DNA of 64,000 nt, from the NCBI GenBank assembly GCA_947085985.1, contig CAMTYL010000003.1:298108-362107 (forward strand), read 5' to 3'. The position numbers and the translations under genes are program-made. Under the pieces are notes generated by a model. That model worked only from the letters and a program-made list of their open reading frames with translations, did not search any database and was not told the origin of the DNA. Origin of the DNA: an uncultured bacterium. GTDB taxonomy: Bacteria; Patescibacteriota; Minisyncoccia; Phycocordibacterales; Phycocordibacteraceae. Shown piece by piece: positions 1-60,310 of this stretch. The first letter of the stretch is position 1, and the number at the start of each line of letters is the position of its first letter.

Positions 1-28
1 CACTGATAAGCGTCGCATATTTACATCC

Positions 29-604
29 GTGTCGGACCATGAGCGATTCTTGGCATTGTTGTATTTGTGCAATAGTGAGCATTCCGTAGACATGAAACTA
101 CAAGGTTCAACCTTGTATGAATTGCTTGAGCAGCCGCGTGGCGAAACGCTAGTAGATGTTTCTGCATATTGCTTGATGCCAAACCATTTTCACTTGATAG
201 TAAAAGAGAAAGCTGATGGTGGACTCAGTAAGTTTATGCAGAAAGTTACCACTGGATACACCATGTACTTCAACAAGCGCCACGATCGCTCGGGGTCACT
301 GTTTCAAGGAAGGTTCAAGGTACGTCACATAGACACTGACAGATATCTATCGTACCTGATTTCGTATGTTCACCTTAATCCTGTAAAGATGTTTGAACCC
401 ACATGGAAAGAGACCGGTATCTTGAACCGCACTGACGCACAAGCATTTCTGAGAAGGTATCCATACTCAAGTTACTGCGACTATCTTGGAAAACAACGAC
501 CAGAGCGAGCAGTACTAAATACCAAAAGTCTTCCTGACTACTTTTTAAATGGTACTGACTTTGAAAGAGCCGTCGCAGATTGGCTTACTTACAAGCCAGA
601 ATGA
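29..604 (+). mobile_element. IS200/IS605-family (Y1 HuH) or REP-associated tyrosine transposase (RAYT)-like gene; GTG start at 29, reading frame open to window edge so N-terminus may lie upstream
   Basis: HuH motif 'PNHFHLIV' and downstream catalytic Tyr context 'YLISYVHLNP'; palindrome ACAAGGTT(C/G)AACCTTGT at 97-113 and again at 607-623 just after the stop (subterminal/REP-like hairpins). Confidence 0.55.
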
Positions 605-650
605 TACAAGGTTGAACCTTGTAATTCGTGAGGGAAATTTGGGTGGTTGT

Positions 651-3122
651 CTATAGGGCGACCATGGAGGCAATAGAATCCCCCTCCCGCATCTTCATAA
701 TACGCACACCCTGCGTGGCGCGAGAAAGACTCGGTATCTCTCCCGTAGACACACGAATCACCTGTCCCTTCTTAGAAATCACGACAATTTCTTCTTCCTG
801 ACTCTCTGCACCCACCAGTACCTTTGCACCGATGATGCTTCCCGTCTTAGTAGTAACGTCTGCGGTCTTAATACCTGAGCCACCACGCCCCTGAATCTTG
901 TACTCAGACAGCGGCGTCTTCTTACCGTATCCTTTGTCCATCAAGATAAGGAGTGTCGCTCCCTTAGCGTCTGCGGGCACTACTTCAGCCGAGACGATGC
1001 GATCCCCCTTCTTCACGGTCATGCCGCGCACACCTGCTGCGGTGCGGCCCATGGCGCGTGTCTCGCCCTCATCAAAGCGGATACTCTGCCCTGCGGAAGT
1101 GACGACAGATACACTGTCGCCCTCGCTTGTGAGCTGTGCGGTCACTAGCTTGTCACTACCCTTTAGCGCAATGGCGATAATGCCCGAGCGGCGTACGTCA
1201 GCAAAGTTCTTTGCCTCCACTTTCTTCACCACACCCTCCTGCGTCACAAAGAATACCGAGAGCGCGTCACGCGCCGCTCCCTTTGGCACCGCAAGCACAC
1301 TGGTGACCTTCTCATCACTTGCGATAGAGAGGAAGTTCATGATGGACTTGCCCTTGGTTGCACGCTTTCCTTCTGGCAACTCATACATCTTGAGCTGGTA
1401 CGCCTTTCCGTAATCGGTGAAGAACAACAGGTCAGAGTGCGCCGTTGCTGAGAGGAAGTGAGTCACTACGTCCTCTTCTTTTGTAGACATATCAATGACA
1501 CCCACACCGCCGCGCTTTTGTGCCTTGTACTCGTCTGGGTTCGTGCGCTTTACGTAGCCACCTTGGGTGAGTACCAGCACACTCTCCTCGTCGGGCACCA
1601 GGTCTTCTACAGAAATATTCTTTACACCACCCTTCACAATCTTGGTGCGACGGTCGTCCCCATACTTCTCTCCAATCTCAATCAGCTCGCTACGCACCAC
1701 GGCGAGAATGTTCTTCTCCGAAGAAAGTATCTTCTTAAGTCGCGCAATAAGCTCTGCAAGCTCCTTCAGCTCGTCTTCAATCTTCTTGCGCTCAAGACCA
1801 GCAAGCGTCTGCAAACGCATCGCAAGAATAGCGGCAGTCTGGCGCTCGCTAAAGGCAAACTTCTTTTGGAGTGCGAGGGAGGCCTCTGGGACATCCTTAG
1901 ACTTCTTGATTATCGCAATGACTTCATCAATGTGATCAAGCGCCTTAGAAAGGCCGAGCAAGATGTGCTCGCGCTCTTCTGCCTTTCGTAGCTCGTACTC
2001 GGTGCGGCGACGCACTACCACTTTGCGGTGCGCAATAAAGTTCTCGAGCATGCCCTTCAGTGAGAGTGTCTGCGGCACGCCGTCTACCAGCGCCAGCATG
2101 TTGTAGTGGAACGTGCTCTCAAGCTCGGTGTACTTGTACAGGTTGTTGAGTACTGCTTGTGGGTGCGCCGTACCCTTCAGCTCCACCACCACCCGGATGT
2201 CGTCGGTGGATTCGTCGCGCAGGTCCTTGATACCTTCTAACTTTTTCTCGCGTACCAAGTCCGCAATGCGGGTGATGAGGTCTGCCTTGTTCACGCGATA
2301 CGGGATAGAAGAGATGACGATGTTGGTGCCCTTCTTGTCCTCTATGATGTCCGCCTCGCCGCGCACCACAACACCACCGCGCCCCGTAGTGTACGCGTGG
2401 CGAATGTCGGTCTGATTAAACGCAATGGCGCCAAGAGGGAAGTCTGGCCCCTTCACGTGCTCAAGCAGGTCCTCGGTGGAAGCCTCTGAGTCATCAATTA
2501 AGTGGGCAGTGGCGGCAATAAGCTCGCGCAGGTTGTGCGGAGGAATGTTGGTGGCCATACCCACGGCGATACCAAGTGCACCATTCAAAAGCAGGTTTGG
2601 TGCAGCCGCGGGAAGCACGGTTGGCTCTTGCTTAGACCCGTCAAAGTTTGGAATCCACTCAACCGTCTCCTTTTCAAGGTCACGGAGCATTTCGTCCGCT
2701 AGGCGCGACATTTTGGCTTCAGTGTAGCGGTAGGCTGCGGCCGGGTCGCCGTCAATGGAACCGAAGTTTCCCTGCCCGAGCACAAGCGGATAGCGCGTAG
2801 AGAAGTTTTGCGCGAGCTTTACCATCGCGTCGTACACCGATGCGTCTCCGTGCGGGTGATAACTACCGAGCACCTCTCCCACCACCGTTGCCGACTTGCG
2901 GAATTTGGCCGTAGGCGTAAGGCCTGTCATGCGCATCGCGTAGAGAATGCGGCGATGCACTGGCTTTAGTCCGTCACGCACGTCAGGCAGAGCGCGGCTC
3001 GTGATAACCGTCATCGCGTAGTCAATGTAGGACTGACGCATCTCAGCAGTAATGGACTGCTCAATAATGTTTACGCGCTCTACAGGAACACTTTCTTCAG
3101 GTTTGACAGCTTTCTTTGGCAT
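651..3122 (-). CDS. gyrA: DNA gyrase subunit A
   Basis: 823 aa; N-terminal region with active-site Tyr context 'AAMRYTE', 'GKYHPHGD'-like 'GSYHPHGD', C-terminal beta-pinwheel repeats. Confidence 0.95.
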
Positions 3123-4580: not shown

Positions 4581-4692
4581 GACCCACGGTCCAGACAGCA
4601 ATCAGGGGATAACCCAGACCCTGAAAGAAGTCGACCCCGCGAGCGCGAGCTTGCGGGGCTTTCTTTTTATTACGACACATCCACAGGGGTAT

Positions 4693-4727
4693 TGACAAGT
4701 CCTCTGAATACTTGGTAGTATTTTTGG
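4693..4727 (+). promoter_or_regulatory. sigma70-type promoter TTGACA-N18-TAGTAT
   Basis: Consensus -35 hexamer and good -10, about 70 nt upstream of ATG at 4801 with RBS GAAGGA. Confidence 0.55.
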
Positions 4728-7885: not shown

Positions 7886-8428
7886 CTACTTCTCGCACAC
7901 TCCAGGGGCCCAGAGTCCACGGCCAGCAGCTTCGGCTTCTTTCTGCGCCGTCTTAAATTCTGCCTGATACTTGTATGGAAGTCGATACGTGTACTCATAC
8001 GCGTACCCTTCTTCAATCATGTATCTATTGAACAAAAGTCCGTCCTCACGGATTACATAGCCGAGTAGGCGTCCGTATTTGTCGCGCTCACCCTGCGAGC
8101 TTTCGGTTTCTATGCGCACCTGTTGCCCATCTAGTAGCTCCTTTGCCTTTGCAGAAGCTTCTTTGCCGAAACACTCCACGGGCCTGCGCGGGTCCACCGT
8201 CTCTGGCGTATTCATACCAATCAATCGCACCGTCTCCTTCTTCCCATTCATATCAATATGAATGGTGTCGCCGTCCACCACCTTCAGTACACTGTAGTGT
8301 GTCGTGGAGGCAACCATACTGTCAGTAGTATCAACAGGTGCTGTTGGAGTGCTCACTTGTATGCCAAAAAGAAGAAGCAGTGCTATGAGCAACTCGGAGC
8401 CAAATTGCAACAGCGTATCCTGAATCAT
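7886..8428 (-). CDS. thermonuclease (staphylococcal/micrococcal nuclease-like, SNase fold), secreted/membrane-anchored
   Basis: 'VLKVVDGDTIHI...RLIGMNTPE' SNase motif, N-terminal hydrophobic segment; start taken at internal ATG (ORF caller used upstream GTG at 8446). Confidence 0.7.
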   Translation of the reverse strand: MIQDTLLQFGSELLIALLLLFGIQVSTPTAPVDTTDSMVASTTHYSVLKVVDGDTIHIDMNGKKETVRLIGMNTPETVDPRRPVECFGKEASAKAKELLDGQQVRIETESSQGERDKYGRLLGYVIREDGLLFNRYMIEEGYAYEYTYRLPYKYQAEFKTAQKEAEAAGRGLWAPGVCEK

Positions 8429-8647
8429 GTTCTTACTAGTGTACACGGAGTGCGAAACTTAAATTGCACGTATAGGTTGAGAGTGGTAGTTCAAGCATTA
8501 TATGGACCTCGTAGGTTCATGTATCAAATCAAATTGATCGCTGGTTGCCGCACCATTTCCTACTTCGCCTCGTCTGTGTTATGAATACCGCGGACTGTTG
8601 CAGCAGCTGTGGGCGTCGTGCCTGTACCTGCAACAAAAGGAGGTCAC

Positions 8648-9137
8648 CATGACCAGCACCAAGACTAGGAGCTGTGGCGGGTGCACCGCCTGTTGCCATA
8701 CCCATTCCGTGGATATGGACGGGGTCTATACACCCCGATTCAAAGACTGCTCCCACTGCGTAATCGGAGTGGGTTGTGGTGTGTACGAGTCGCGTCCGTA
8801 CTCCTGTTCTATATACCGCTGCCTCTGGCTTACGGGAATGCCCGATCATATGCGGCCCGACAAGTTTGGCGTCGTGCTTGATGTCTGGACGGTGCCGAAC
8901 GAAACAATGCGGTTCCTAAACTTTTGGGAAGTATACCCCGGAAGACTCAACGAACCTGACGTCGGAGAGTTCATAGAGGGACTGCTCGCCACTCGACCCT
9001 ACGTGATCATCTGCCGCCGGCCGGATTTCGCGGTAGATATCCGCTTTCCCCACGGTATTGATATCGGGGAACAAGAGCGGCTCACGCGAACGATCCTGAA
9101 AGAGATACAAGTGCAGGGCGAATACGCCAACGCGTAG
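8648..9137 (+). CDS. YkgJ-family Cys-cluster protein (CxxCxxCC putative Zn/Fe-chelating domain)
   Basis: 'CGGCTACC' motif near N-terminus plus further Cys; RBS 'AAAGGAGG' 6 nt upstream of ATG; GC-rich. Confidence 0.55.
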
Positions 9138-9155
9138 TGGCGCGCACCACGACAC

Positions 9156-9189
9156 AGGGCCCGACGAGCAATCGTCGGGCCCTTTCTGC
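9156..9189 (+). terminator. hairpin terminator AGGGCCCGACGAGCAATCGTCGGGCCCTTTCTGC; copy 1 of an identical 34-nt element
   Basis: Perfect 10-bp GC stem followed by TTTCTGC; identical copy at 10429-10462. Confidence 0.6.
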
Positions 9190-9247
9190 ATACGCAGTTT
9201 TACAAATTAGTTCCGGGCGGCCCCTGGTGGGGCCGCCCGGTAATGGC

Positions 9248-9853
9248 TCAATCAATAACCTGGCAGTAGCGCTGGACCGACAGGTCGAGCGTACCCCACG
9301 TGGTCCACTGCCGCAGGAACTGAAGCGCGAAGCGCATCTGATGCTCCTTGGACTTGCCGTAAAGGGCCTCTTTGAGGCGACCCTTAGCAGCCCACAGTCC
9401 CGGGAGGAACCAGATTTCCCAGTACAGACCCGAGTCACCCCGCCGCGATCGCATGCAGGCGAATCCGCACTCCGCCAGAAGTTCCGCGTTGGCCCTGTAC
9501 CCTTCCGGAGTGTAGGAGTAGCCGCAGAGATGCTGGATGAAGATAGATTGCGACTGCTCGTTCCAGTTCACAATCGGCTCAAACAGTTCGGCCTGGTAGT
9601 GCTCCGGATTCTTTTCTTCACGAGTCGGCGTTCGCCACTGCGGAAGCATGGCGTCCTCGGTGGGGGCGGGCACCGGCTCGTGCGCGGGGGCGAATTCAAG
9701 CCGCCCGCCGACAAGCCGCGCCCACCAGTGTCCATGCATCATGCCCTGGATCTTCTCGCCTTCTTCTTCGGTGAGGTCGGAGATAGTTACCTCGCCTCGT
9801 GGACCTCCACGAGACATGGAAATTCGCGCACGAGGCGGTTCGTTGCTGTCCAT
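9248..9853 (-). CDS. hypothetical GC-rich protein (201 aa)
   Basis: Protein-like composition (W/Y/F-rich) in contrast to the Arg-rich antisense ORF 9137..10291; perfect hairpin CCGGGCGGCCCCTGGTGGGGCCGCCCGG (9213-9240) immediately after stop. Confidence 0.5.
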   Translation of the reverse strand: MDSNEPPRARISMSRGGPRGEVTISDLTEEEGEKIQGMMHGHWWARLVGGRLEFAPAHEPVPAPTEDAMLPQWRTPTREEKNPEHYQAELFEPIVNWNEQSQSIFIQHLCGYSYTPEGYRANAELLAECGFACMRSRRGDSGLYWEIWFLPGLWAAKGRLKEALYGKSKEHQMRFALQFLRQWTTWGTLDLSVQRYCQVID

Positions 9854-29796: not shown

Positions 29797-30963
29797 ATGG
29801 CCCGACGCATCGCAGCAGGAATTGACATCGGCACCCACCAGACGAAAGTCGTGGTAGTGGAAGAAGTGTCTACTCCTGAAGGTGCGACCCTTAAAATTTT
29901 GGGTACGGGTATTGCTCCTACGCGCGGCATGCGCCACGGCTACGTGGTTGATATAGAAGATGCTGCAGCATCAGTGCGCCAGGCACGCGAACAAGCAGAA
30001 TCAATAGCTCACCTTCCTATTAAGAAAGGGTTCCTTGCCGTTGGCGGTATTTCACTGGACGAGGTGCGTGCCAGTGGCGAGACTGTTATATCGCGCGCTG
30101 ACCAAGAGATTACGGAGCTTGATATTGAGAAGACCCTTGAAGGCGCGCGCGAAGCAGCGCGCCCAGGATTCCTGAACCGCACCGTGCTGCACGAGATTCC
30201 GGTGGAGTTTCGCGTGGACGGGCACCTCTCACTCGGCGCCCCCCTTGGCATGCGCGGCACCCGCCTCTCAGCGGACTATCTCTTTGTCACCTGTCTTACC
30301 CAGCATGTACAGACGCTCATTCGTGTTGCTGAAGCTGCTGACATTGAAGTAATTGACCGCATGGCGTCTCCTCTTGCAGGTTCCTACGTCACGCTTACTA
30401 AAGACCAAAAGATGAAGGGCTGTGTGCTGGCAAACATTGGCGCAGAAACTGTTTCCATAGTGGTGTACGACGAGGGCCTCCCTATTTCCGTAAAAGTGTT
30501 CCCGATTGGTTCTACCAACATCACCGACGACCTCGCACTTGGCTTTAAGGTTTCCCTTGAAGACGCAGAACGATTAAAGCTAGGCCACCTAGGCGGCGCC
30601 ATGTATCCCAAGAAGAAGATTGAAGAGATTGTGACGGCGCGCTATCGCACCATGTTCGATTTAATTGATAAGCACCTGAAGGCACTTGGTAAGCGCGGCA
30701 GTTTGCCCGCCGGTATCATCATTTCTGGCGGTGCATCCGGCCAAGGCACCATTGTAGACATCGCCAAGGGAGCACTTGCTCTACCGTCTCGAGTGGCTGA
30801 TGTGCGCATTACCGAGGACACCAAGATTAAAGACGCGACTTGGGCGGTGGCGTACGGTCTCTCGCTTTGGGGACTCACGGGCGACACGGAGACGCCCCAC
30901 AAGGCTCGCGCTGGCGCATTCATTGAGTCTCTCGCCCGCTTCTTCCGCCAGTTCCTCCCATAA
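29797..30963 (+). CDS. ftsA: cell division protein FtsA
   Basis: Actin-like ATPase 'AGIDIGTHQTKVVVV', SHS2 insert, position upstream of ftsZ. Confidence 0.85.
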   Translation: MARRIAAGIDIGTHQTKVVVVEEVSTPEGATLKILGTGIAPTRGMRHGYVVDIEDAAASVRQAREQAESIAHLPIKKGFLAVGGISLDEVRASGETVISRADQEITELDIEKTLEGAREAARPGFLNRTVLHEIPVEFRVDGHLSLGAPLGMRGTRLSADYLFVTCLTQHVQTLIRVAEAADIEVIDRMASPLAGSYVTLTKDQKMKGCVLANIGAETVSIVVYDEGLPISVKVFPIGSTNITDDLALGFKVSLEDAERLKLGHLGGAMYPKKKIEEIVTARYRTMFDLIDKHLKALGKRGSLPAGIIISGGASGQGTIVDIAKGALALPSRVADVRITEDTKIKDATWAVAYGLSLWGLTGDTETPHKARAGAFIESLARFFRQFLP

Positions 30964-31071
30964 CAGAGCGGAAAGTACAGCACGTTTCCACTCTCTGTCT
31001 AGATTTGCAAGCTGGGCTACCCTGGTATAGTTAATTGAACCTTTTATTTATAGGCCCACATCCCATTTAGT

Positions 31072-32367
31072 ATGTCCAAGCGCATTGAACCAGAAGTCGA
31101 GACATTTGCTCGCATTCGCGTAGTTGGCTGTGGAGGCTCCGGCGGAAACGCAGTGAACCACATGGTTAACTCCAAAGTTAAGGGCGTAGAATTTATTGCG
31201 GTTAATACTGATGCTCAAGATTTGCATCGCTCACTTGCAAAGCGAAAGATTCACATAGGACGGAACCTCACCAAGGGCCTTGGTGCTGGAATGAATCCAG
31301 AGCTTGGAAAGCGTGCTGCAGAAGAGACGCGTCAAGAAATTCAGGAGGCACTTCAGGGTTCTGACATGGTATTCATCACCTGTGGACTCGGTGGTGGAAC
31401 CGGAACAGGTGCTGCCCCTGTGGTTGCAAAGATTGCAAAGGAGGTTGGCGCACTCACGGTTGCCATTGTCACTCGCCCATTCACCTTTGAGGGACTTCAG
31501 CGCAAGGAAATTGCAGAGCGCGGCCTTGCTGAGCTGAAGCGCGAAGTAGACGCGTACATCGTTATTCCAAACGACAAGCTTCTTTCTATCGTAGAGGCAC
31601 AGACAACCGCAAAGACCGCGTTTGCGCTCGCTGACGAGATTCTCCGCCAGGCGGTAGAGGGTGTCTCCGACATCATCACCACGCCTGGAGAAATCAACAC
31701 TGACTTCAACGACATCAAGGCCATCATGGAGGGCGCAGGTCCTGCCCTTATGGGTATTGGGGTGGCTGAGGGCGACCGCAGGGCACAGGACGCAGCTGCG
31801 CAGGCGGTCAACTCTCCACTTCTGGACGTGTCTATCGCAGGCGCTCGCGGCGTACTCTTTGTCGTTGCTGGAAGTGATGATCTCGGTATCCTTGAAGTTC
31901 AAGAGGCTGCCAAGGTGGTATCAGATTCAGTCGACAAGGATGCGAAAGTTATCTTCGGTATCATGCGCGACGAAAAGCTCAAGAAGGGCCAAATCCGCAT
32001 CATCGTTATTGCAACAGGATTCCCAGAGCAGGATGGAGGCGATGTGGCCGTCACAGCCAACGAGCGCTCACTCTTCTCTATGCCAGTTCCACAGAAGGAG
32101 GAAGTGCGTGGCAAGATTTTCAACGACAGCATGCCGCGTCGTGAGGAGCCAACCCCTGCCCCAGAGCCAGAACCAGCGCCTGAGGCCGCTCCAGCGCCAG
32201 CACCTGCCCCAACACCTATTCGCGAGATGCTTCGCCGTGAGGAGCCAATTGTGACGGCTCAGCCGCAGCGCCGCGAGGAGGGAGGAAAGACCATTACTCC
32301 GCCTGTCGTGGATGAGGAGGATGCTTGGGGAGCGATTCCTAATTTCTTGAAGCGTCACAAAAAGTAG
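31072..32367 (+). CDS. ftsZ: cell division GTPase FtsZ with Pro/Ala/Glu-rich C-terminal linker
   Basis: '[13 protein letters not shown]' tubulin signature, T7 loop. Confidence 0.95.
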
Positions 32368-32569
32368 TCACTCGCATTGCTAAAAGATTCGCAGCCCGGC
32401 GCTCAGGTGTCGGGTTTTGCGTTGTCGCCTCGTAGCGAAATCTCCCTAGAGCACTTCGTTAGTCGGGAGATTTCTTCTCGGCTCTGCACAAAACTCCTCT
32501 GCCTTCGGTTTAGCGAATCTTTTCCCAACGCTCGCTCCGAGAGAAAGAAAAACCTTGTATGAAAAGCAA

Positions 32570-32599
32570 GAACCCCGCGATGTTTCCAACGCGGGGTTC
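32570..32599 (-). terminator. hairpin AACCCCGCGATGTTTCCAACGCGGGGTT + U-run, terminator of 32649..33218
   Basis: 9-bp perfect stem. Confidence 0.5.
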
Positions 32600-32648
32600 A
32601 AAGGAGCAGAGTATCAGGGATCTAGGTCCGAAACTCAATGTTCCAAGT

Positions 32649-33218
32649 TCAACTTGCGTGCACCAAGGCAGGTGTGTTTTCACCGAATTCACTGCCGTAC
32701 CAACAGCCACGACTGCCCCACTTGCCGTCCTTATAGATGAGGCAGCGAACACACACAAAGTAGTTTGTGTTGCGATACACCGTACCCCAGAAGAAAACAC
32801 GATTACCTTTCCATTCCTCTGGAATGAGGTGTGGATTGGCAAGCAGATAGTCGAGGACGTTGGCGTTGAATGGAACCTTCTTCGCCACATCCTTAATGAG
32901 CTTGTTACCATCGAGCACGCTGCCGTTCTTCTGACCGCTCGCGAGCCAAAGCTTGACCTTCGATGCGTCCCATTGGAATGAGCCGCCCTTTTGGTGTTCT
33001 TCGACTTTCCAGCCGTCGGGAACGAACGGGTCGACGTCGCAGTCGATGACGTGTTCCACCACGGTAATGGAAGAGTGACCGCGGAGGACATTGCGGACAT
33101 CGGCGAGGACGTTGCCCTCGCAAAGTCGCTTGATGTCGTCGTTTGTGTAATTCGCGCGGCGGAATGCCAGCTTCAGTTCGTTGGCTTGGCCAACATCGAG
33201 CATCAAATCATTGCTCAT
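32649..33218 (-). CDS. hypothetical GC-rich protein (189 aa)
   Basis: Protein-like composition, own terminator; antisense ORF 32559..32981 is R/P-rich shadow. Confidence 0.45.
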   Translation of the reverse strand: MSNDLMLDVGQANELKLAFRRANYTNDDIKRLCEGNVLADVRNVLRGHSSITVVEHVIDCDVDPFVPDGWKVEEHQKGGSFQWDASKVKLWLASGQKNGSVLDGNKLIKDVAKKVPFNANVLDYLLANPHLIPEEWKGNRVFFWGTVYRNTNYFVCVRCLIYKDGKWGSRGCWYGSEFGENTPALVHAS

Positions 33219-33289
33219 CGTTGTTCTCCAGTATGCGACGATGTTCGTTAGAACTGTGTCGCGTGCCAGCGGGCTCTCTCGGGTGAGGG

Positions 33290-33341
33290 TTTGCCATAGC
33301 AGAGAATGGCCTACAATTAAGCCGCTTTCTGCTATGGCAAA
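33290..33341. promoter_or_regulatory. 14-bp perfect inverted repeat TTTGCCATAGCAGA-N24-TCTGCTATGGCAAA between divergent promoters
   Basis: Seen directly; candidate operator or bidirectional terminator/insulator. Confidence 0.4.
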
Positions 33342-33472
33342 TGCAAGTTGAATATCAAAGAGCTTTTTTTATTATACTACATAATATTGCTATTTGTCAA
33401 ACAATCAGTAGCACGCCAATACTTTTTAATCCCCCCAACTCCTTGAAGAAGATTTGGTATACTTCAAGCACT

Positions 33473-34399
33473 ATGAACGATTTGATAATTATTGGGGGTG
33501 GGCCAGCAGGAATTGCAGCGGGAGTGTATGCCTCAAGGAAGCGCGTGAAGACGGTGCTCATAACCGAGGAAATTGGTGGCCAGTCCACCGTGTCTGACGG
33601 CATACAGAACTGGATAGGCACGGTGAATATTCCGGGAGCAGAACTCGCCAAGAACCTGCGTGAGCACCTGCTTGCGTACAAGGACGATGTACTCACGCTC
33701 GCTGAGGGTGAGAAGGTGGAGAAACTTGAGAAGATTGAGGGTGGGTTTCGAGCCACCACGACGAGTGGAAAGACTACAGACGCCAAGGCGGTACTCCTTG
33801 CGGCCGGCGCTGGCCGAAAGCAGCTCACCGTACCTGGTGCAAATATCTTTGAACACAAGGGTGTTACCTACTGTGCCAGCTGTGATGGACCAATGTTCTC
33901 GGGCCAGGATGTTGCGGTGGTGGGTGGAGGAAACGCAGGCGTCGAGACTGCTGCGCAGCTTTTAGCATATGCAAAGTCGGTGACCATTATTCACCGCAGG
34001 AGCGAATTTAAGGCGGACGCTATTACCGTGGAGAAAGTCCTCCAACATCCGAACCTGCGCGCCATGACTGACACCGAGCCGGTGGAAGTGCACGGTGAGA
34101 AATTTGTGACGGGCATGACCGTGAAGAACGTGAAGACTGGTGAGACAGAGCTCCTCCCTGTCACCGGTGTGTTCGTAGAAATTGGCGTGCTTCCAAACAC
34201 GAGCTTTGCAAAGGACCTCGTACAGCTCGATGAAGTCGGGCGTGTCGTCACCGACCCAAGGACGCAGCGGACAAGTGTGGAAGGTGTATGGGCAGCTGGA
34301 GATTGTACCGACGAGCTATACCATCAGAACAACATCGCCGCAGGAGACGGCGTTAAGGCGCTCGAGGACATCTACCAGTGGCTCGCCCGAAATAGATAA
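33473..34399 (+). CDS. trxB: thioredoxin-disulfide reductase
   Basis: 'IIIGGGPAGIAAG' FAD motif, redox-active 'CASCDG', second Rossmann 'VVGGGNAG'. Confidence 0.85.
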   Translation: MNDLIIIGGGPAGIAAGVYASRKRVKTVLITEEIGGQSTVSDGIQNWIGTVNIPGAELAKNLREHLLAYKDDVLTLAEGEKVEKLEKIEGGFRATTTSGKTTDAKAVLLAAGAGRKQLTVPGANIFEHKGVTYCASCDGPMFSGQDVAVVGGGNAGVETAAQLLAYAKSVTIIHRRSEFKADAITVEKVLQHPNLRAMTDTEPVEVHGEKFVTGMTVKNVKTGETELLPVTGVFVEIGVLPNTSFAKDLVQLDEVGRVVTDPRTQRTSVEGVWAAGDCTDELYHQNNIAAGDGVKALEDIYQWLARNR

Positions 34400-34453
34400 G
34401 AAGAAACCCCCGGTGTTAGCCGGGGGTCGCCGCATTGCGGACTTGAAGGTGAA

Positions 34454-35200
34454 CTAGATAGTGCGATTGGTCATCTGGTCGGTGATCTTCTTGGTCAGAC
34501 CGTCGCCGAGAATGGCGCGCAGCAGACAGCTGCGGATTCCGCCTTTCCAGGTTTCGTGCGGGTTGCGAACGATGTCGCAGATGTCGCGCAGCAGATCGCC
34601 GTAGCCACGCGCCTTCGCGGCGAATTCCCGACTGGTGCCGAGGACTCGGTGGTACTCTTCGTGCAGGTTGCGATAGTCGGCGGCGGCGGCCTCCAGCATT
34701 TGCTGCTGAGTGACCCGCTCGCCTTCCCGTTTATGCGACAGGACGACCGCGCGAGCCAGTTGCCGGCGATTGATTTTGCCGTTGATGAACCGGAAGAAGG
34801 TCATAACGTCGACGAGGAGATACTCCACGCCGTCGGTCAACCTCACCGGCATCTTCGTGACGAAGATGCGGTTGGGGCGGTATTGGACCATAAACCCGAA
34901 GTCATCTCCCCCGAACCCGCCACTTTGGATGAACGGGTGGACCGGATCGTACTGATGCTCGTACTCCACGAACAGTTTGCCGTCCTTCCAGAAATACGGC
35001 TGGAAGTTGTAGTGGTCGCTGAGGGTGCTGCTCTTGAAGACCAGCAGACCGTTCGTTCCCTTCTTGGGAGCGAAGGCGAACTGCCGGTACGTGAGCCCCG
35101 TCGGCGGAAACATGCCTTCGAGGCACGTCGAACCGACGAATTCGCCAGCACTAATCAGGTCGAGGGTGGCGACACCATTCACAACGTTGACACCAGACAT
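34454..35200 (-). CDS. hypothetical GC-rich protein (248 aa)
   Basis: Own promoter TTGACA-N17-TATTAT (35318-35346), 110-nt leader with three CGAUG-loop hairpins, terminator 34413-34435. Confidence 0.5.
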   Translation of the reverse strand: MSGVNVVNGVATLDLISAGEFVGSTCLEGMFPPTGLTYRQFAFAPKKGTNGLLVFKSSTLSDHYNFQPYFWKDGKLFVEYEHQYDPVHPFIQSGGFGGDDFGFMVQYRPNRIFVTKMPVRLTDGVEYLLVDVMTFFRFINGKINRRQLARAVVLSHKREGERVTQQQMLEAAAADYRNLHEEYHRVLGTSREFAAKARGYGDLLRDICDIVRNPHETWKGGIRSCLLRAILGDGLTKKITDQMTNRTI

Positions 35201-35317
35201 TTTCTGTAGACCTTTTCTCTAGCATCGCTAGGATAGCGGGAGCGGCCACATCGTGGCATCCCTTGGCCAGTTTGAATCCTCTCTAGCCCGATGAGGGGAA
35301 ACATCGTTTCCACATAT

Positions 35318-35346
35318 ATAATACTATATTGTATATAAATTGTCAA
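35318..35346 (-). promoter_or_regulatory. sigma70-type promoter TTGACA-N17-TATTAT
   Basis: Consensus elements read on minus strand. Confidence 0.55.
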
Positions 35347-35654
35347 TACCATGAAGGGTTGCTGGGATACAGAGAAACCGCGCTCCAAGGGAGCGCGGTT
35401 TTTCTATACTGAACGGGTGGTGCTTACGCAGCCGCCTCGTCGCCAGTCTCCACAGTAGGAGCCTCGTCAGCCGGAGCCTCAGGTGCTGCTTCTACGTTCT
35501 CTCCCTCTGCAGGGATGATTGTTTCATCGTCCATCATAGTGTGTTGGAGAATGGCTTTGCGTCTGCCAGAAGCAGAAAGACAAAGCCATCCAATGCTTAG
35601 TTGGCTGGCAAATCGACCTTGTTTCCATTATACCAGACTAGGGCCTGCAAGCTA

Positions 35655-36899
35655 CTAGCCATTCATGTCCCAAATCTTTGCCGCTACGTTTTGTGGAGAG
35701 CCTTCAAAGGGCAGGTGGTGATTGTCAAAGAATGGCATGCTATTACACTCCAAAATGCCACAACGCTCCGTCTCCTTCCAAGAACGTGAGATATCGCTAA
35801 TGATGAAATCAATGCCTGCAATGGTAGCGCCTAGCACTCGCGATACCTCCTCAAACAGCGCGACGTTGTCAGGGTGGGTGTCAGGCGTCACATCGCGGGT
35901 AGTACCACCCACACTCCAGTTCACTTTTTGGTGCAGCGTCACCCGAAGGCCTTCTGTTGGCACACTCGTGCGCGTGAGGTTCTGCCAGGCAAGCTCCTGG
36001 TCCGCAGTCTCGTCCAGTTTGATATGGTGGAAGTACGGCCCCTGACGCTTGGGGTGTGTATTTGCTTCTTTTACGAGCTCCTCCACTGTATGCGTTCCGT
36101 CTCCATAGACATGCGGCTGATCACGGCGAAGCGCTGCCGCAAACTTCCCGTTTACGGTAGTGGCGCGATATACCGGCCCCACGAGCTCTTCCTCAATAAC
36201 CGCGCGTGGCGCTACCTGCGTAGCAATCCGGAAGGCACGCACCAAATCTTCGTCCGTCATAACATGGAGCACCGTGTGGCGGGACGCGGAGCCTGAATAT
36301 GGCTTTACGATAGCTGGCGGGGTGAGCGACCGCATAATCTTACGCGCTCCAGCGAGCGTACGCGCGGTCCCTCCTTTTGCTACCGGTAGCCCTAGCTTCG
36401 TAAACTCCTCCTTTAGGACGGCCTTGTTGTCCATCCACGCCACGCGCCCCGTATTGGATTGTGGAAGTGGTATGCCTTCAAAAGCGATACTTCGCCCACT
36501 CGGATAGGTGGCTATAAAAATATTGTTCGGTAGGCCCCCCATGCGAAACTCCTCAACACGGATTCCTCGCCTTAGCGCCTCTTCCCATATCATACGCGCC
36601 ATCAATTGCGTGTCATTGTCAGGCTGTTGTATTCGCTTCGCGAGTGAAAGGCGCATGCCCACCTCTAGCATCTGGGGGGTAATGCGGCGGAGAACTCTGT
36701 TTACCCCAAGCGCAAACGCACTCGCAGGCTTTGCGCTGCCGCGAGGAGGTGAGCCAAATGCTGCTTCAAGAAGCTCTTCTATGACGATAGTTATATAGGT
36801 GACAGTGTGGAAGACGGACCCATCGCCACACTCTGGGCAGGGCTTCGGGGTTATATGATCGCGGATCATGGCATGAACCAGTATACCTACACAGCGCAC
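35655..36899 (-). CDS. ATP-grasp peptide ligase (cyanophycin-synthetase/RimK-like) with N-terminal Zn-ribbon
   Basis: 'CPECGDGS' ribbon; ATP-grasp core; paralogous to 36964..38181. Confidence 0.55.
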   Translation of the reverse strand: MRCVGILVHAMIRDHITPKPCPECGDGSVFHTVTYITIVIEELLEAAFGSPPRGSAKPASAFALGVNRVLRRITPQMLEVGMRLSLAKRIQQPDNDTQLMARMIWEEALRRGIRVEEFRMGGLPNNIFIATYPSGRSIAFEGIPLPQSNTGRVAWMDNKAVLKEEFTKLGLPVAKGGTARTLAGARKIMRSLTPPAIVKPYSGSASRHTVLHVMTDEDLVRAFRIATQVAPRAVIEEELVGPVYRATTVNGKFAAALRRDQPHVYGDGTHTVEELVKEANTHPKRQGPYFHHIKLDETADQELAWQNLTRTSVPTEGLRVTLHQKVNWSVGGTTRDVTPDTHPDNVALFEEVSRVLGATIAGIDFIISDISRSWKETERCGILECNSMPFFDNHHLPFEGSPQNVAAKIWDMNG

Positions 36900-36963
36900 C
36901 TTTGTGCACGGTGACCCTGTACGGTTTCCACTTCCTATTCCATACTCTCTCTATACCCATTGT

Positions 36964-38181
36964 ATGAGTACAAGCACCCCACGTACACGATGCGTCTTTT
37001 GTGGTGACGCTCCGGTGAATCACCGACTCCACTATTTCAATACCGCTTCAAGTCTACTTCCCACCCTGTTGTTTCCGCCCAAGACAACTTCCCCAAAGCG
37101 CTTCTATCAAATCAACTACTCTCCACTTGTGAGGGCACTCTCTCGCTGGCTCTTGACACTTCTTGGGCTGGTGGGAGCGTTTCGTTTTAGTGACGAGCCA
37201 GGGCCTACCACAACGTCACGCTCAAAGAGTGTATGGAAAGAAGCAGAGAGGAGAGGTATTAAGATGCAGGAGCTTGTAATGTTTGGACTTCGTCGTGAAG
37301 AAATGCGCGCACTTCTTCCTTCAAAGCCAAACGCCACCCGCCTCACGTGGGAGTATTTCAACAGCATTCCCATTCCTCCTTGGAAGAACCAGCTTGGAAA
37401 CAGCTGGATAGACGACAAAAGTACATTCAAGCGCATGTTTCAAAAACACAATCTGCCAATAGCCCGGGGAGCGTTTGTACGTTCATACAAAGAAGCCGAG
37501 CGTTTGTTTTCTGAAATTAATGGGCGCGTCATTACCAAGCCACGTGAGGGCTCACGCGCGCGCCATACCACGGTCGCCATCTCTACCGTGCACGAGCTTG
37601 AGGAGGGATTTTTTCGTGCCAAACAACTCTGTCCTTTTGTGATGGTGGAAGAGTTCATTGAAGGCACCCTTTACCGAGCCACCTGTGTAGACAAGAAGCT
37701 AATAGGTGTCGTGCAGTTTATAAAGCCCGCCACGGTAGCAGACGGTGTGCATACGGTAGAGCAACTAAGGGCGATTCATAACGAACATAAGAAGTTTCCG
37801 CATTTAACCGATGTACAGCCTGATGCGTGGTTTATAGATGCGATTACGCACCAAGGGTTTACACCAGAGACTGTTCTCCCAGAAGGAACACCGCTCCTTT
37901 TGTCCGAGCACTCGGAGCGACCGAACGGCGGATACTTCATAGATGTTACTGACGAGATCCCTGAAGCCACCCGAGCAACTATCGAGCGCGCCGCTACCGT
38001 GTGTGACGTAGAGGTAATTGGCTACGACATTATTTCAAAAGACCTAACCAATGCTGCACTACCCTTCACATTTATAGAGGGCAACACCCTACCCTATATT
38101 GAGCTACACGATATTCCGTTTGAGGGGACCCCAAGAAATGTGTCTGGCGCCGTATTTGATATGTGGTTCCCGAAGACCTAG
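36964..38181 (+). CDS. ATP-grasp peptide ligase paralog with N-terminal Zn-ribbon
   Basis: 'CVFCGDAP' ribbon; shared blocks with neighbour ('YRAT.V..K', 'DGTHTVE', 'PFEGTP.NV'). Confidence 0.55.
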   Translation: MSTSTPRTRCVFCGDAPVNHRLHYFNTASSLLPTLLFPPKTTSPKRFYQINYSPLVRALSRWLLTLLGLVGAFRFSDEPGPTTTSRSKSVWKEAERRGIKMQELVMFGLRREEMRALLPSKPNATRLTWEYFNSIPIPPWKNQLGNSWIDDKSTFKRMFQKHNLPIARGAFVRSYKEAERLFSEINGRVITKPREGSRARHTTVAISTVHELEEGFFRAKQLCPFVMVEEFIEGTLYRATCVDKKLIGVVQFIKPATVADGVHTVEQLRAIHNEHKKFPHLTDVQPDAWFIDAITHQGFTPETVLPEGTPLLLSEHSERPNGGYFIDVTDEIPEATRATIERAATVCDVEVIGYDIISKDLTNAALPFTFIEGNTLPYIELHDIPFEGTPRNVSGAVFDMWFPKT

Positions 38182-39098
38182 CGTACAAAGAACACAAGAA
38201 GAAGCAACAACCAAAGCATAAATGCCACCAGTAAAAGGTAGGCGCCTATTACCCGAGGAAAGAGCTTTGCGAGCACGGCCAGATAGCGCACTTCGGCAAT
38301 CTTGCTGGTAAACGGGTACCCAGCAGCATAGTAGGGCTGGTGCTTTGCTCGCCACTCGTCTACAAATCCAATAAGACGTGTTGAGTCACGCGAAAAGAGC
38401 TCCTTGAGTTTTTCGCTATGAGCGTCGTCAACCCACTCGCTTCCATTGAAATACTCAAGTGGTTGAAAATTGGTCTTATAGTTCATCCACGAGCCATACG
38501 TGACGCCGAAGTAGAGAAACGCTACTCCCGCCTTCTTAATGCGTTCTAGGAGCTCTATGTAGAGATAGATGCCAAGATGCGTGCGCGCGTAGGTGCGTGC
38601 ATATGCTTGATGCCACACATGCACCATATCTTCGTGATGAGCCTCTAGTGAATACCCCAGCAATTCGCCCTTGGCGCGATACTCAACAATATGCGTCAAA
38701 AATGGCGAGGCAAATATAGCTCGAAGTCTCTCCTGCGACATGGCCTCTTTCCCAAACCGGAACACGAAGTAGGACAGGCAAAACTGAAACGCCCCTTCCA
38801 GGTCTGTGTACGCTTCTTTTGGCACCACGACTACTTCTATACCCCCCGGAATGACTTCTTCTACTTTCCGCTTCACTCTGTTGTGATAGTGTCGTATTTC
38901 AAACTCCCCCACACGCACACGCACTCCCCGTGCCATATACATAAGGTTGTCGCTCTGGTCACGCGCGACAATTGCCGGTAAGAAGCCGCGCTTATACATT
39001 TCTGAAATACGGTCTCCTTTTTCAAGTTCTCCGTATACCGAGTACCCAAAGGAATAAAAGGCTGGATGTGCGGTCAGCTCTGCGTAAAAGACTTTCAT
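38178..39098 (-). CDS. arginyl/leucyl-tRNA--protein transferase-like (ATE/Bpt family) protein with C-terminal TM helix
   Basis: 'LYFGVTYGSWMNYKTNFQPLEYF' resembles ATE_C block '[26 protein letters not shown]'; overlaps paralog stop by 4 nt. Confidence 0.4.
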   Translation of the reverse strand: MKVFYAELTAHPAFYSFGYSVYGELEKGDRISEMYKRGFLPAIVARDQSDNLMYMARGVRVRVGEFEIRHYHNRVKRKVEEVIPGGIEVVVVPKEAYTDLEGAFQFCLSYFVFRFGKEAMSQERLRAIFASPFLTHIVEYRAKGELLGYSLEAHHEDMVHVWHQAYARTYARTHLGIYLYIELLERIKKAGVAFLYFGVTYGSWMNYKTNFQPLEYFNGSEWVDDAHSEKLKELFSRDSTRLIGFVDEWRAKHQPYYAAGYPFTSKIAEVRYLAVLAKLFPRVIGAYLLLVAFMLWLLLLLVFFVR

Positions 39099-59818: not shown

Positions 59819-59939
59819 ATAATCTTTTTACAATGGCCCTAATAATCTTAGTAAGTATAGCTTATTCCGCGGGGTAAACCCCGCAAATCGTGGGGAAAAG
59901 CGAAATCCGCCCGATAAGAGGCGGATTTCGCATGTTTTT

Positions 59940-60310
59940 GGACTGGCTCGATAAGCCGAATTCTGTCCCAGCTCCACTTTTGCATTGCTGCTAAAGTGGG
60001 GCTGGGGACGATCATTTATCTGGGACTACTGTTACCAGCAGCCTCGAGCGGCACCCATGAACCCAAGAGTTCAAGTACGGCCTTGCACAGAGGTAAGGAT
60101 TTAGCCGTTTCATTCTCTGTGTCGCCACAAAGATTCATCTCAAAGAGATGTCCTTTGCTTTCGCTCCGGACGTCACTGTTCGCACCTCGCGCATCACTGC
60201 GGACGGGCGTTACCCGCTACCTTGCTGATCAGTGCTTTCGCACTGCCTGAGTTCGGACTTTCCTCTATGTCGCCTCCGAAGAAGGGCACAGCGATCGTCT
60301 GAGCCAGTCC
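59940..60310 (-). ncRNA. rnpB: RNase P RNA (bacterial type A)
   Basis: P1 pairing GGACUGGCUC/GAGCCAGUCC at the two ends; 'AGAGGAAAGUCCGAAC' (CR-I/P4) and 3' 'ACAGAAUUCGGCUUAUCGAGCCAGUCC' (CR-V) consensus; terminator hairpin 59900-59931 + U-run. Confidence 0.8.

Follow-up and report, generated by a model that had tools for sequence, protein, structure and literature searches.

The stretch of DNA analysed here, a 64-kb window on a contig of an uncultured patescibacterium, carries on its minus strand (34454-35200) a gene for a 248-aa orphan protein with an N-terminal β-rich domain (residues ~1-150) and a long basic helical tail. The window also contains ftsZ (31072-32367), a thioredoxin-reductase-like gene (33341-34399), an RNase P RNA and six tRNAs. 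The RNase P RNA, of bacterial class A (59936-60310, minus strand), passed the gathering score of 100 with just 118 bits, which points to a divergent molecule, as might be expected for Patescibacteria. The interval between ftsZ and the thioredoxin-reductase-like gene (32368-33340) is only ~1 kb long and holds one 196-aa ORF without a family match, whereas in the sister genome L001 a bAvd and reverse-transcriptase pair resembling a diversity-generating retroelement (8185-9557) lies between the trxB-like gene and ftsZ.

On the other side of the 248-aa gene are two divergent, paralogous ATP-grasp ligase genes (35655-36899, minus strand; 36904-38181, plus strand). They gave no Pfam match, and by NCBIfam (E = 1e-60 and 1e-47) they resemble cyanophycin synthetase, GshAB and N-acetylglutaminylglutamine synthetase in the ATP-grasp region. 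They are adjoined by a FemAB/arginyl-transferase-like gene (ATE_C, GNAT; 38178-39098, minus strand), and the ligase pair and this gene together look like a small peptide-ligation cluster. Inserted between the upstream ligase gene and the promoter of the leader studied here is a small ORF (35424-35537, minus strand) for a very acidic 37-aa peptide, MMDDETIIPAEGENVEAAPEAPADEAPTVETGDEAAA, accompanied by a promoter-like TGgTATAAT (~35640-35627), a structured leader and a terminator (35402-35372). This ORF is conserved in L001 (~4603-4716) and absent in L006, L007, L009 and L088, in which the stop codon of the ligase gene abuts the leader promoter. As a speculation, the 37-aa peptide could be a substrate of the neighbouring ligases.

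The leader of the 248-aa gene, read on the minus-strand RNA, contains three hairpins with one shared CGAUG loop on differing stems: H1, GGAAA-CGAUG-UUUCC (35297-35311); H2, GCCA-CGAUG-UGGC (35245-35257); and H3, CUAG-CGAUG-CUAG (35219-35231). A purine-rich SD sequence, AAAAGG (35211-35216), lies 2 nt past H3, and the start codon AUG occupies 35198-35200. These hairpins had been described in a first-pass annotation of the same DNA and were confirmed in the minus-strand sequence, with two corrections: the spacings are 39 nt (H1-H2) and 13 nt (H2-H3) instead of 40 and 14 nt, and the first hairpin begins at 35311, one base outside the range of 35218-35310 given earlier.

On the two strands of the 64-kb window, CGAUG-loop hairpins with four or more Watson-Crick pairs occurred five times, and three of the five were in the leader. 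When any pentaloop was allowed, the leader was the one place in the window where three hairpins sharing a loop fell within 120 nt, and no such triple appeared in 100 dinucleotide shuffles when both strands were scored (200 shuffled strands). The hairpin cluster is real and non-random. The earlier claim that it does not represent chance structure was thus borne out by the shuffles and, as described below, by covariation across 12 leaders. The folding energy gave a different picture. The first-pass annotation had named a folding energy no better than that of shuffled controls as an outcome that would speak against the hairpins, and this was what we obtained: the MFE of the leader was -34.1 kcal/mol (z = -1.23), and 26 of 200 shuffles were as stable, which is not significant. 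Shuffle tests of the MFE have little power for short hairpins and do not see pseudoknots, both of which bear on this leader; the test was therefore rejected as a criterion, and the reality of the element was decided by comparative evidence.

A sigma-70-type promoter precedes the hairpins on the minus strand (35318-35346), with TTGACA at 35346-35341, a 17-nt spacer and TATTAT at 35323-35318 (11 of 12 positions in a consensus scan). The position of this promoter implies a predicted transcription start at ~35311, the first base of H1, so that H1 would form the 5' end of the transcript. The TTGAC(A)/-10 pair was present in all 12 leaders, 6-7 nt from H1 (~10 nt in L075). The terminator at 35402-35372 lies upstream of both the hairpins and the promoter, and no terminator was found between the hairpins and the AUG, indicating that the element is a leader and not a separate RNA gene. 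The SD region of the window's leader was predicted to be mostly unpaired (P = 0.78), and in several leaders, the window's included, SD and AUG were predicted to be largely accessible without a factor.

The same leader was found directly upstream of the gene at every homologous locus examined, giving 12 distinct leaders, five of them close variants and seven distant (L075, L083, L085, L086, L087, L088, and L090). Close relatives of the locus came from MAGs of Candidatus Saccharibacteria or of the Patescibacteria group, and proteins at the distant loci ranged from ~62% down to ~23-30% identity to the window's protein. The neighbours of the carrier loci differed, being ftsZ/trxB, gyrA with an S1-domain gene, metK, mraZ/mraW/PBP and mreBC clusters, or a divergent 16S rRNA gene, and these unrelated neighbourhoods indicate that the leader RNA travels with the gene. 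The search for the motif at homologous loci, which the first-pass annotation had proposed, therefore succeeded, with stems that differ and covary around a fixed loop.

Some of these neighbourhoods deserve mention in their own right. In L085, ~490 nt separate the family gene with its leader (gene 1849-2565, plus strand) from the 5' end of the divergent 16S rRNA gene (1-1356, minus strand). In L086, the orphan gene lies between an mraZ-mraW-PBP cluster and a greA-PBP-mreC-mreB cluster, and in the window (29797-32367) and in L006 it lies near ftsA/ftsZ. This hints at a link of the coiled-coil protein described below to cell division or cell shape, a link not seen in L075 and L083.

The compared sequences define a predicted conserved domain of ~75 nt, consisting of H1, an H-type pseudoknot with interleaved helices A and B, and a helix P3 that encloses H2. 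In the window, helix A pairs CCUC (35296-35293) with GAGG (35281-35278), and helix B pairs GGCUAG (35288-35283) with CUGGCC (35270-35265); the third pseudoknot loop is A-rich (AUUCAAA, 35271-35277). P3 pairs GGGA (35262-35259) with UCCC (35241-35238). P3 is flanked by a conserved AA on its 5' side and by an invariant G on its 3' side; H3 and the SD come next. Across the leaders, P3/H2 ends 22-37 nt upstream of the AUG.

The loops were the most constant part of the domain. H1 had a CGAUG loop in 12 of 12 leaders and H2 in 11, the remaining one being CGCUG in L090. For H3 the count was 9 of 12, with UUAG in L085, a rudimentary hairpin in L086, and no H3 in L075. CGAUG was thus present in 32 of 33 scored loops, and the lone exception differs at position 3 only. 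The closing pairs varied (A-U, U-A, and G-C in H1; A-U and G-C in H2), and so did the stem of H3 (CUGA/UCAG in L007 and L088; UUGA/UCA(GG) in L083 and L087); in L083, L085, and L087, an extended H3 was predicted to pair with the SD. In these sequences, the universal features are two identical loops, those of H1 and H2, on a pseudoknotted scaffold, and H3 is a lineage-specific addition. The first-pass annotation had taken the three hairpins themselves as the element; they stand as the functional feature of the leader of 34454-35200, but it is a larger domain that holds H1 and H2, and H3 does not belong to its universal part. Pairing of the loops with a CAUCG-like first pseudoknot loop was also considered and dropped, as it held in the close clade and L075 only.

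To assess covariation, the 12 leaders were aligned by hand on their structure, with N padding, and MAFFT left this alignment unchanged; plain MAFFT of the distant leaders had misaligned the pseudoknot, and the hand-made alignment was used instead. In this alignment, whose fit to the structure somewhat inflates the pairing figures, 99.2% of 261 cells formed standard pairs (100% in H1 and helix A, 98.5% in helix B), and the stem variants were plain in the raw sequences as well. Compensatory changes on both sides were present in 17 of 24 pairs (5/5 in H1, 3/5 in helix A, 4/6 in helix B, 2/4 in P3, and 3/4 in H2), although the independent events are fewer than the counts suggest because 6 of the 12 leaders are close relatives. 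None of 500 shuffles reached any of five measures, and when the partners were slid by 1-3 columns as a control, pairing fell to 19-60%. Helix A read CCCC/GGGG in L075, CUUC/GAAG in L090, GCUC/GGGC in L085, and CCUUC/GAAGG in L083; helix B occurred as GAGAG/CUCUC, GGGAG/CUCCC, GUAGA/UCUAC, and GUGAG/CUCAC; and P3 as GGGC/GCCC (L085) and GAGA/UCUC (L090). The U-G and G-U pairs show the minus-strand RNA to be the strand that folds.

A covariance model, R1, was built from the structural alignment with the pseudoknot helix A left out. It matched each family locus exactly once, with 36-47 bits, and gave a single match in the 64-kb window, at 35238-35314 on the minus strand (45.4 bits, E = 1.6e-8), which we take as the conserved sensor domain. 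As a control, 56 chance loci from other bacteria scored below 19 bits, and eight viral loci gave no match at E ≤ 1. The pattern GGCCAAGGGA-N5-CGATG-N18-24-CGATG, scanned over genome contigs, returned 58 loci, of which two were true copies (Saccharibacteria MAGs L029 and L048) and the others chance matches in GC-rich genomes; this DNA pattern is too narrow for distant copies elsewhere. Two scans of viral contigs yielded chance matches only, a phage DNA similarity search with 33000-37000 gave no match, and a metagenome scan with the protein profile recovered just two near-identical loci.

Rfam 15 gave no match over the leader at gathering thresholds, in line with the earlier statement that no described riboregulator has this motif. 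At E ≤ 10, the region 35150-35450 returned only the upstream terminator and noise, and five other carrier loci gave no match at E ≤ 5. Literature searches found nothing relevant on CGAUG loops and no described RNA regulator in Saccharibacteria or Patescibacteria, nor any Patescibacteria-specific structured regulatory RNA. With the comparative results, the leader is very probably a real cis-regulatory RNA. It is a previously undescribed and evolutionarily conserved element that stands before one orphan protein family in Patescibacteria of the Saccharibacteria type, and most likely controls translation of the downstream protein. We regard it as a new family of cis-regulatory leader RNA that works like known leader regulators without being a member of any of those compared below.

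Each CGAUG loop contains an AUG, and three public gene calls, P0004 (L009, 102-926), P0059, and P0060, start at that of the H1 loop, giving proteins of 274-283 aa instead of 240-249 aa. This N-terminal extension, in which the structured leader is read as coding sequence, is probably a mis-annotation. Across leaders, the AUGs of the hairpin loops define no conserved reading frame, and a coding uORF starting from the loop AUG was rejected, as indels of 1 nt and of other lengths that are not multiples of three shift the frame between leaders and the stop codons vary.

The downstream gene offers few clues of its own. Close relatives of the 248-aa protein formed five clusters among 5.8 billion proteins, and a HMMER scan of 1.84 billion representatives added ~50 remote relatives, which share the ~150-aa N-terminal domain followed by a variable helical tail. 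The leader-bearing gene always encodes a protein of this orphan family, ~150-270 aa long and without a Pfam domain. No family was assigned by Pfam, NCBIfam, PHROG, or PADLOC (43 members or a sampled subset), the PDB sequence search found no relative, and a fold search with the protein model gave no convincing match. The AlphaFold model, computed with 12 sequences, was confident (pLDDT 82.5) and contains a β-rich N-domain (4-129), a short helix, a 68-residue helix (145-212), and two further helices. Conserved aromatic features on the surface comprise FPPxG, Y38, F41, F43, and W71. From the long helix we suspect that the protein forms a coiled-coil dimer, in which two copies of the conserved domain would be displayed. 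With a median pI of 6.6, the N-domain is close to neutral, the tail is basic (median pI 9.8), and no RNA-binding fold could be recognised in the model. The helical tail is missing from two members of the family (150-152 aa), yet L087 has the full leader.

Several known leader regulators share parts of this layout. CsrA/RsmA targets repeat GGA (ANGGA) in hairpin loops whose stems are unrelated, with one copy at or next to the SD, and are read by a bridging homodimer. The leader described here likewise repeats a short motif on unrelated stems and has H3 at or on the SD in most lineages, but its loops are without GGA, and its pseudoknotted scaffold is tied to one gene family and not regulon-wide. 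In the leaders of S15, S4, L20, and T4 gene 32, a pseudoknot near the 5' end or the ribosome-binding site gives translational feedback; these are known RNA- or ssDNA-binding proteins whose leaders mimic rRNA sites, and to our knowledge none of the leaders has repeated identical pentaloops. The likeness lies in the pseudoknot within a leader, whereas the gene downstream here encodes no ribosomal protein; with regard to rRNA mimicry, no C-GAU-G hairpin was found in the 16S rRNA of the carrier L085. Riboswitches of the SAM-II and preQ1 types are compact H-type pseudoknots with an A-rich loop, located next to the SD of metabolic or transport genes. Our leader has such a pseudoknot with an A-rich loop, but adds flanking identical-loop hairpins, which are absent from those aptamers, and no Rfam model matches it.

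Repeated look-alike hairpins are found in two other systems. The guanidine-II riboswitch (mini-ykkC) consists of tandem hairpins in a 5' leader with variable stems and identical loops, containing a self-complementary CG, and exerts translational control at the SD; each of its hairpins ends in an ACGR tetraloop above two conserved G-C pairs, it has no pseudoknot or enclosing stem, and it precedes guanidine-handling genes (PMC5558903). The present leader shares the variable stems with identical, CG-containing loops. It differs in that the loops are pentaloops, CGAUG, or on another reading GAU triloops with a closing C-G pair, the pairs under the loops vary, the hairpins are embedded in a pseudoknotted domain, and the downstream gene encodes an orphan coiled-coil protein, with no guanidine carboxylase or SugE-type gene. 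[quoted passage not shown] Two look-alike hairpins are likewise present in our leader, but its loops have 5 nt, its gene product matches no synthetase or other family, and no mimicked cellular RNA was found in a search of the L085 16S rRNA.

We think it probable, if by no means certain, that the leader represents a sensor RNA class that is new and has to date been met in Patescibacteria-type genomes only, with two or three identical C-GAU-G loops on a pseudoknot scaffold forming a joint recognition surface. For the mechanism, we tentatively propose a translational operator: a multivalent protein would hold on to the identical loops, and this protein may be the coiled-coil product of the gene. 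Transcription from the strong promoter would yield an RNA that begins with H1 and folds into H1, the pseudoknot A/B, and P3/H2, with the variable H3 abutting or containing the SD. A multivalent trans-acting factor would then read the identical loops of H1, H2, and mostly H3; a dimeric protein is the most likely candidate, and the gene's own coiled-coil product the most economical one. Binding of the factor would clamp the leader and the SD-proximal hairpin in the 30S landing zone, leading to less translation and hence negative feedback. We infer both the identity of the binding factor and repression as the direction of control; an on switch and an off switch are not distinguishable from sequence.

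The conservation pattern fits such an operator, being centred on the loops and not on the junctions while closing pairs and stems vary, and the SD-proximal hairpin, otherwise variable in the manner of an expression platform, bears this loop again. The two universal loops match the two domains of the suggested dimer. An SD and AUG largely accessible without a factor, as predicted for several leaders, also suit a repressor. The region 22-37 nt upstream of the AUG, where P3/H2 ends, is covered by the 30S subunit in translational operators. The strict linkage of the RNA to one gene family in all 12 sampled leaders argues for the gene product as partner, but the exclusiveness of this link is biased, as the loci were found through the protein. 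The E. coli thrS leader provides a precedent (PMC11088916). Against the operator stand the full leader kept in L087 despite the existence of tail-less members, and against autoregulation in particular the neutral N-domain without an RNA-binding fold. Riboswitches, moreover, classically have this layout too, with a conserved domain and, after it, a variable hairpin that sequesters the SD. Identical loops do not settle the matter either: the first-pass annotation had read them as the mark of a protein operator only, which is too strong, since the guanidine-II riboswitch, a small-molecule sensor, also has two identical-loop hairpins (PMC5558903).

Whether the leader instead senses a small molecule or an ion was weighed next to the operator. 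In this riboswitch, H1, the pseudoknot, and P3/H2 would be the aptamer and H3 with the SD the expression platform, and the identical loops would make ligand-dependent loop-loop or loop-receptor contacts, kissing through the self-complementary 5'-CG-3' being one possibility. We consider it a serious rival, somewhat less likely than the operator. A conserved domain of covarying helices followed by a variable hairpin that sequesters the SD is what is generally expected of a riboswitch, and the H-type pseudoknot with its A-rich third loop and sequence-conserved helices (CCUC/GAGG and AAGGGA/UCCCG) is reminiscent of pseudoknot aptamers. That a metabolite can be sensed by two identical-loop hairpins kissing through the CG of their loops is known from guanidine-II (PMC5558903), and the N-domain of the orphan protein bears no sign of RNA binding. 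Alternative pairings are also conceivable, with the 3' strand of P3 (CUCCC) and the pyrimidine tract before H3 resembling an anti-SD. However, few conserved unpaired nucleotides outside the loops are available for a pocket, and it would be unusual for a riboswitch that the platform hairpin shares the loop of the aptamer hairpins, as it does in 9 of 12 leaders. The motif was seen before one family that is neither enzyme nor transporter, and once in the 64-kb window, although this sampling is biased; and even at E ≤ 10 no Rfam riboswitch model matched.

It is doubtful that the loops are read by a partner other than the gene's product, such as another protein (a global regulator or an RNase) or a loop-pairing RNA. 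Such a partner would account for the loop-centred conservation as well as the operator does, and would suit the gene product's N-domain, which is not basic. The motif nevertheless follows one gene family through unrelated neighbourhoods, favouring a gene-tied partner, and a natural target that the leader might mimic did not emerge in the 16S rRNA of L085, which has no C-GAU-G hairpin.

A constitutive element that has no dedicated ligand, and either shields the mRNA from 5'-end-dependent decay or serves as a ribosome standby or enhancer site, appears improbable. The position of H1 at the predicted +1 in all leaders and the mostly accessible SD of the window's leader would fit this role. But hairpins that only stabilise a transcript have no need of a fixed loop sequence, and the pseudoknot, the invariant loops, and the junction bases are kept at ~25-30% protein identity, which argues for specific recognition. 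Finally, the notion that there is no RNA structure at all, and that chance palindromes, a DNA operator, or a coding uORF from the H1-loop AUG explain the pattern, is very improbable and on the sequence comparison effectively excluded: the hairpins are DNA inverted repeats too, some gene callers begin an ORF at the H1-loop AUG (P0004, P0059, and P0060), and the MFE z-score is modest, but the triple is absent from the 200 shuffled strands, the stems change yet keep pairing, with G-U pairs that work in the minus-strand RNA only, and the interleaved pseudoknot helices covary.

If the leader is indeed a new sensor class, it would be either a new loop-loop riboswitch or the RNA half of a new RNA-protein pair whose protein has an unseen RNA-binding fold. 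In both cases it would control an orphan coiled-coil protein that lies beside ftsA/ftsZ, mraZ, or mreBC in several genomes. The leader also provides a functional clue for a protein family that is orphan and without fold relatives. Repeated identical loops are an easily scanned signal and can flag structured RNAs that energy-based screens miss, as the z-score of -1.23 illustrates for this one. As a compact natural element, the leader could become a genetic control tool for Patescibacteria. These bacteria of the candidate phyla radiation have tiny genomes, and a phylum-specific leader RNA gives a handle on their gene regulation.
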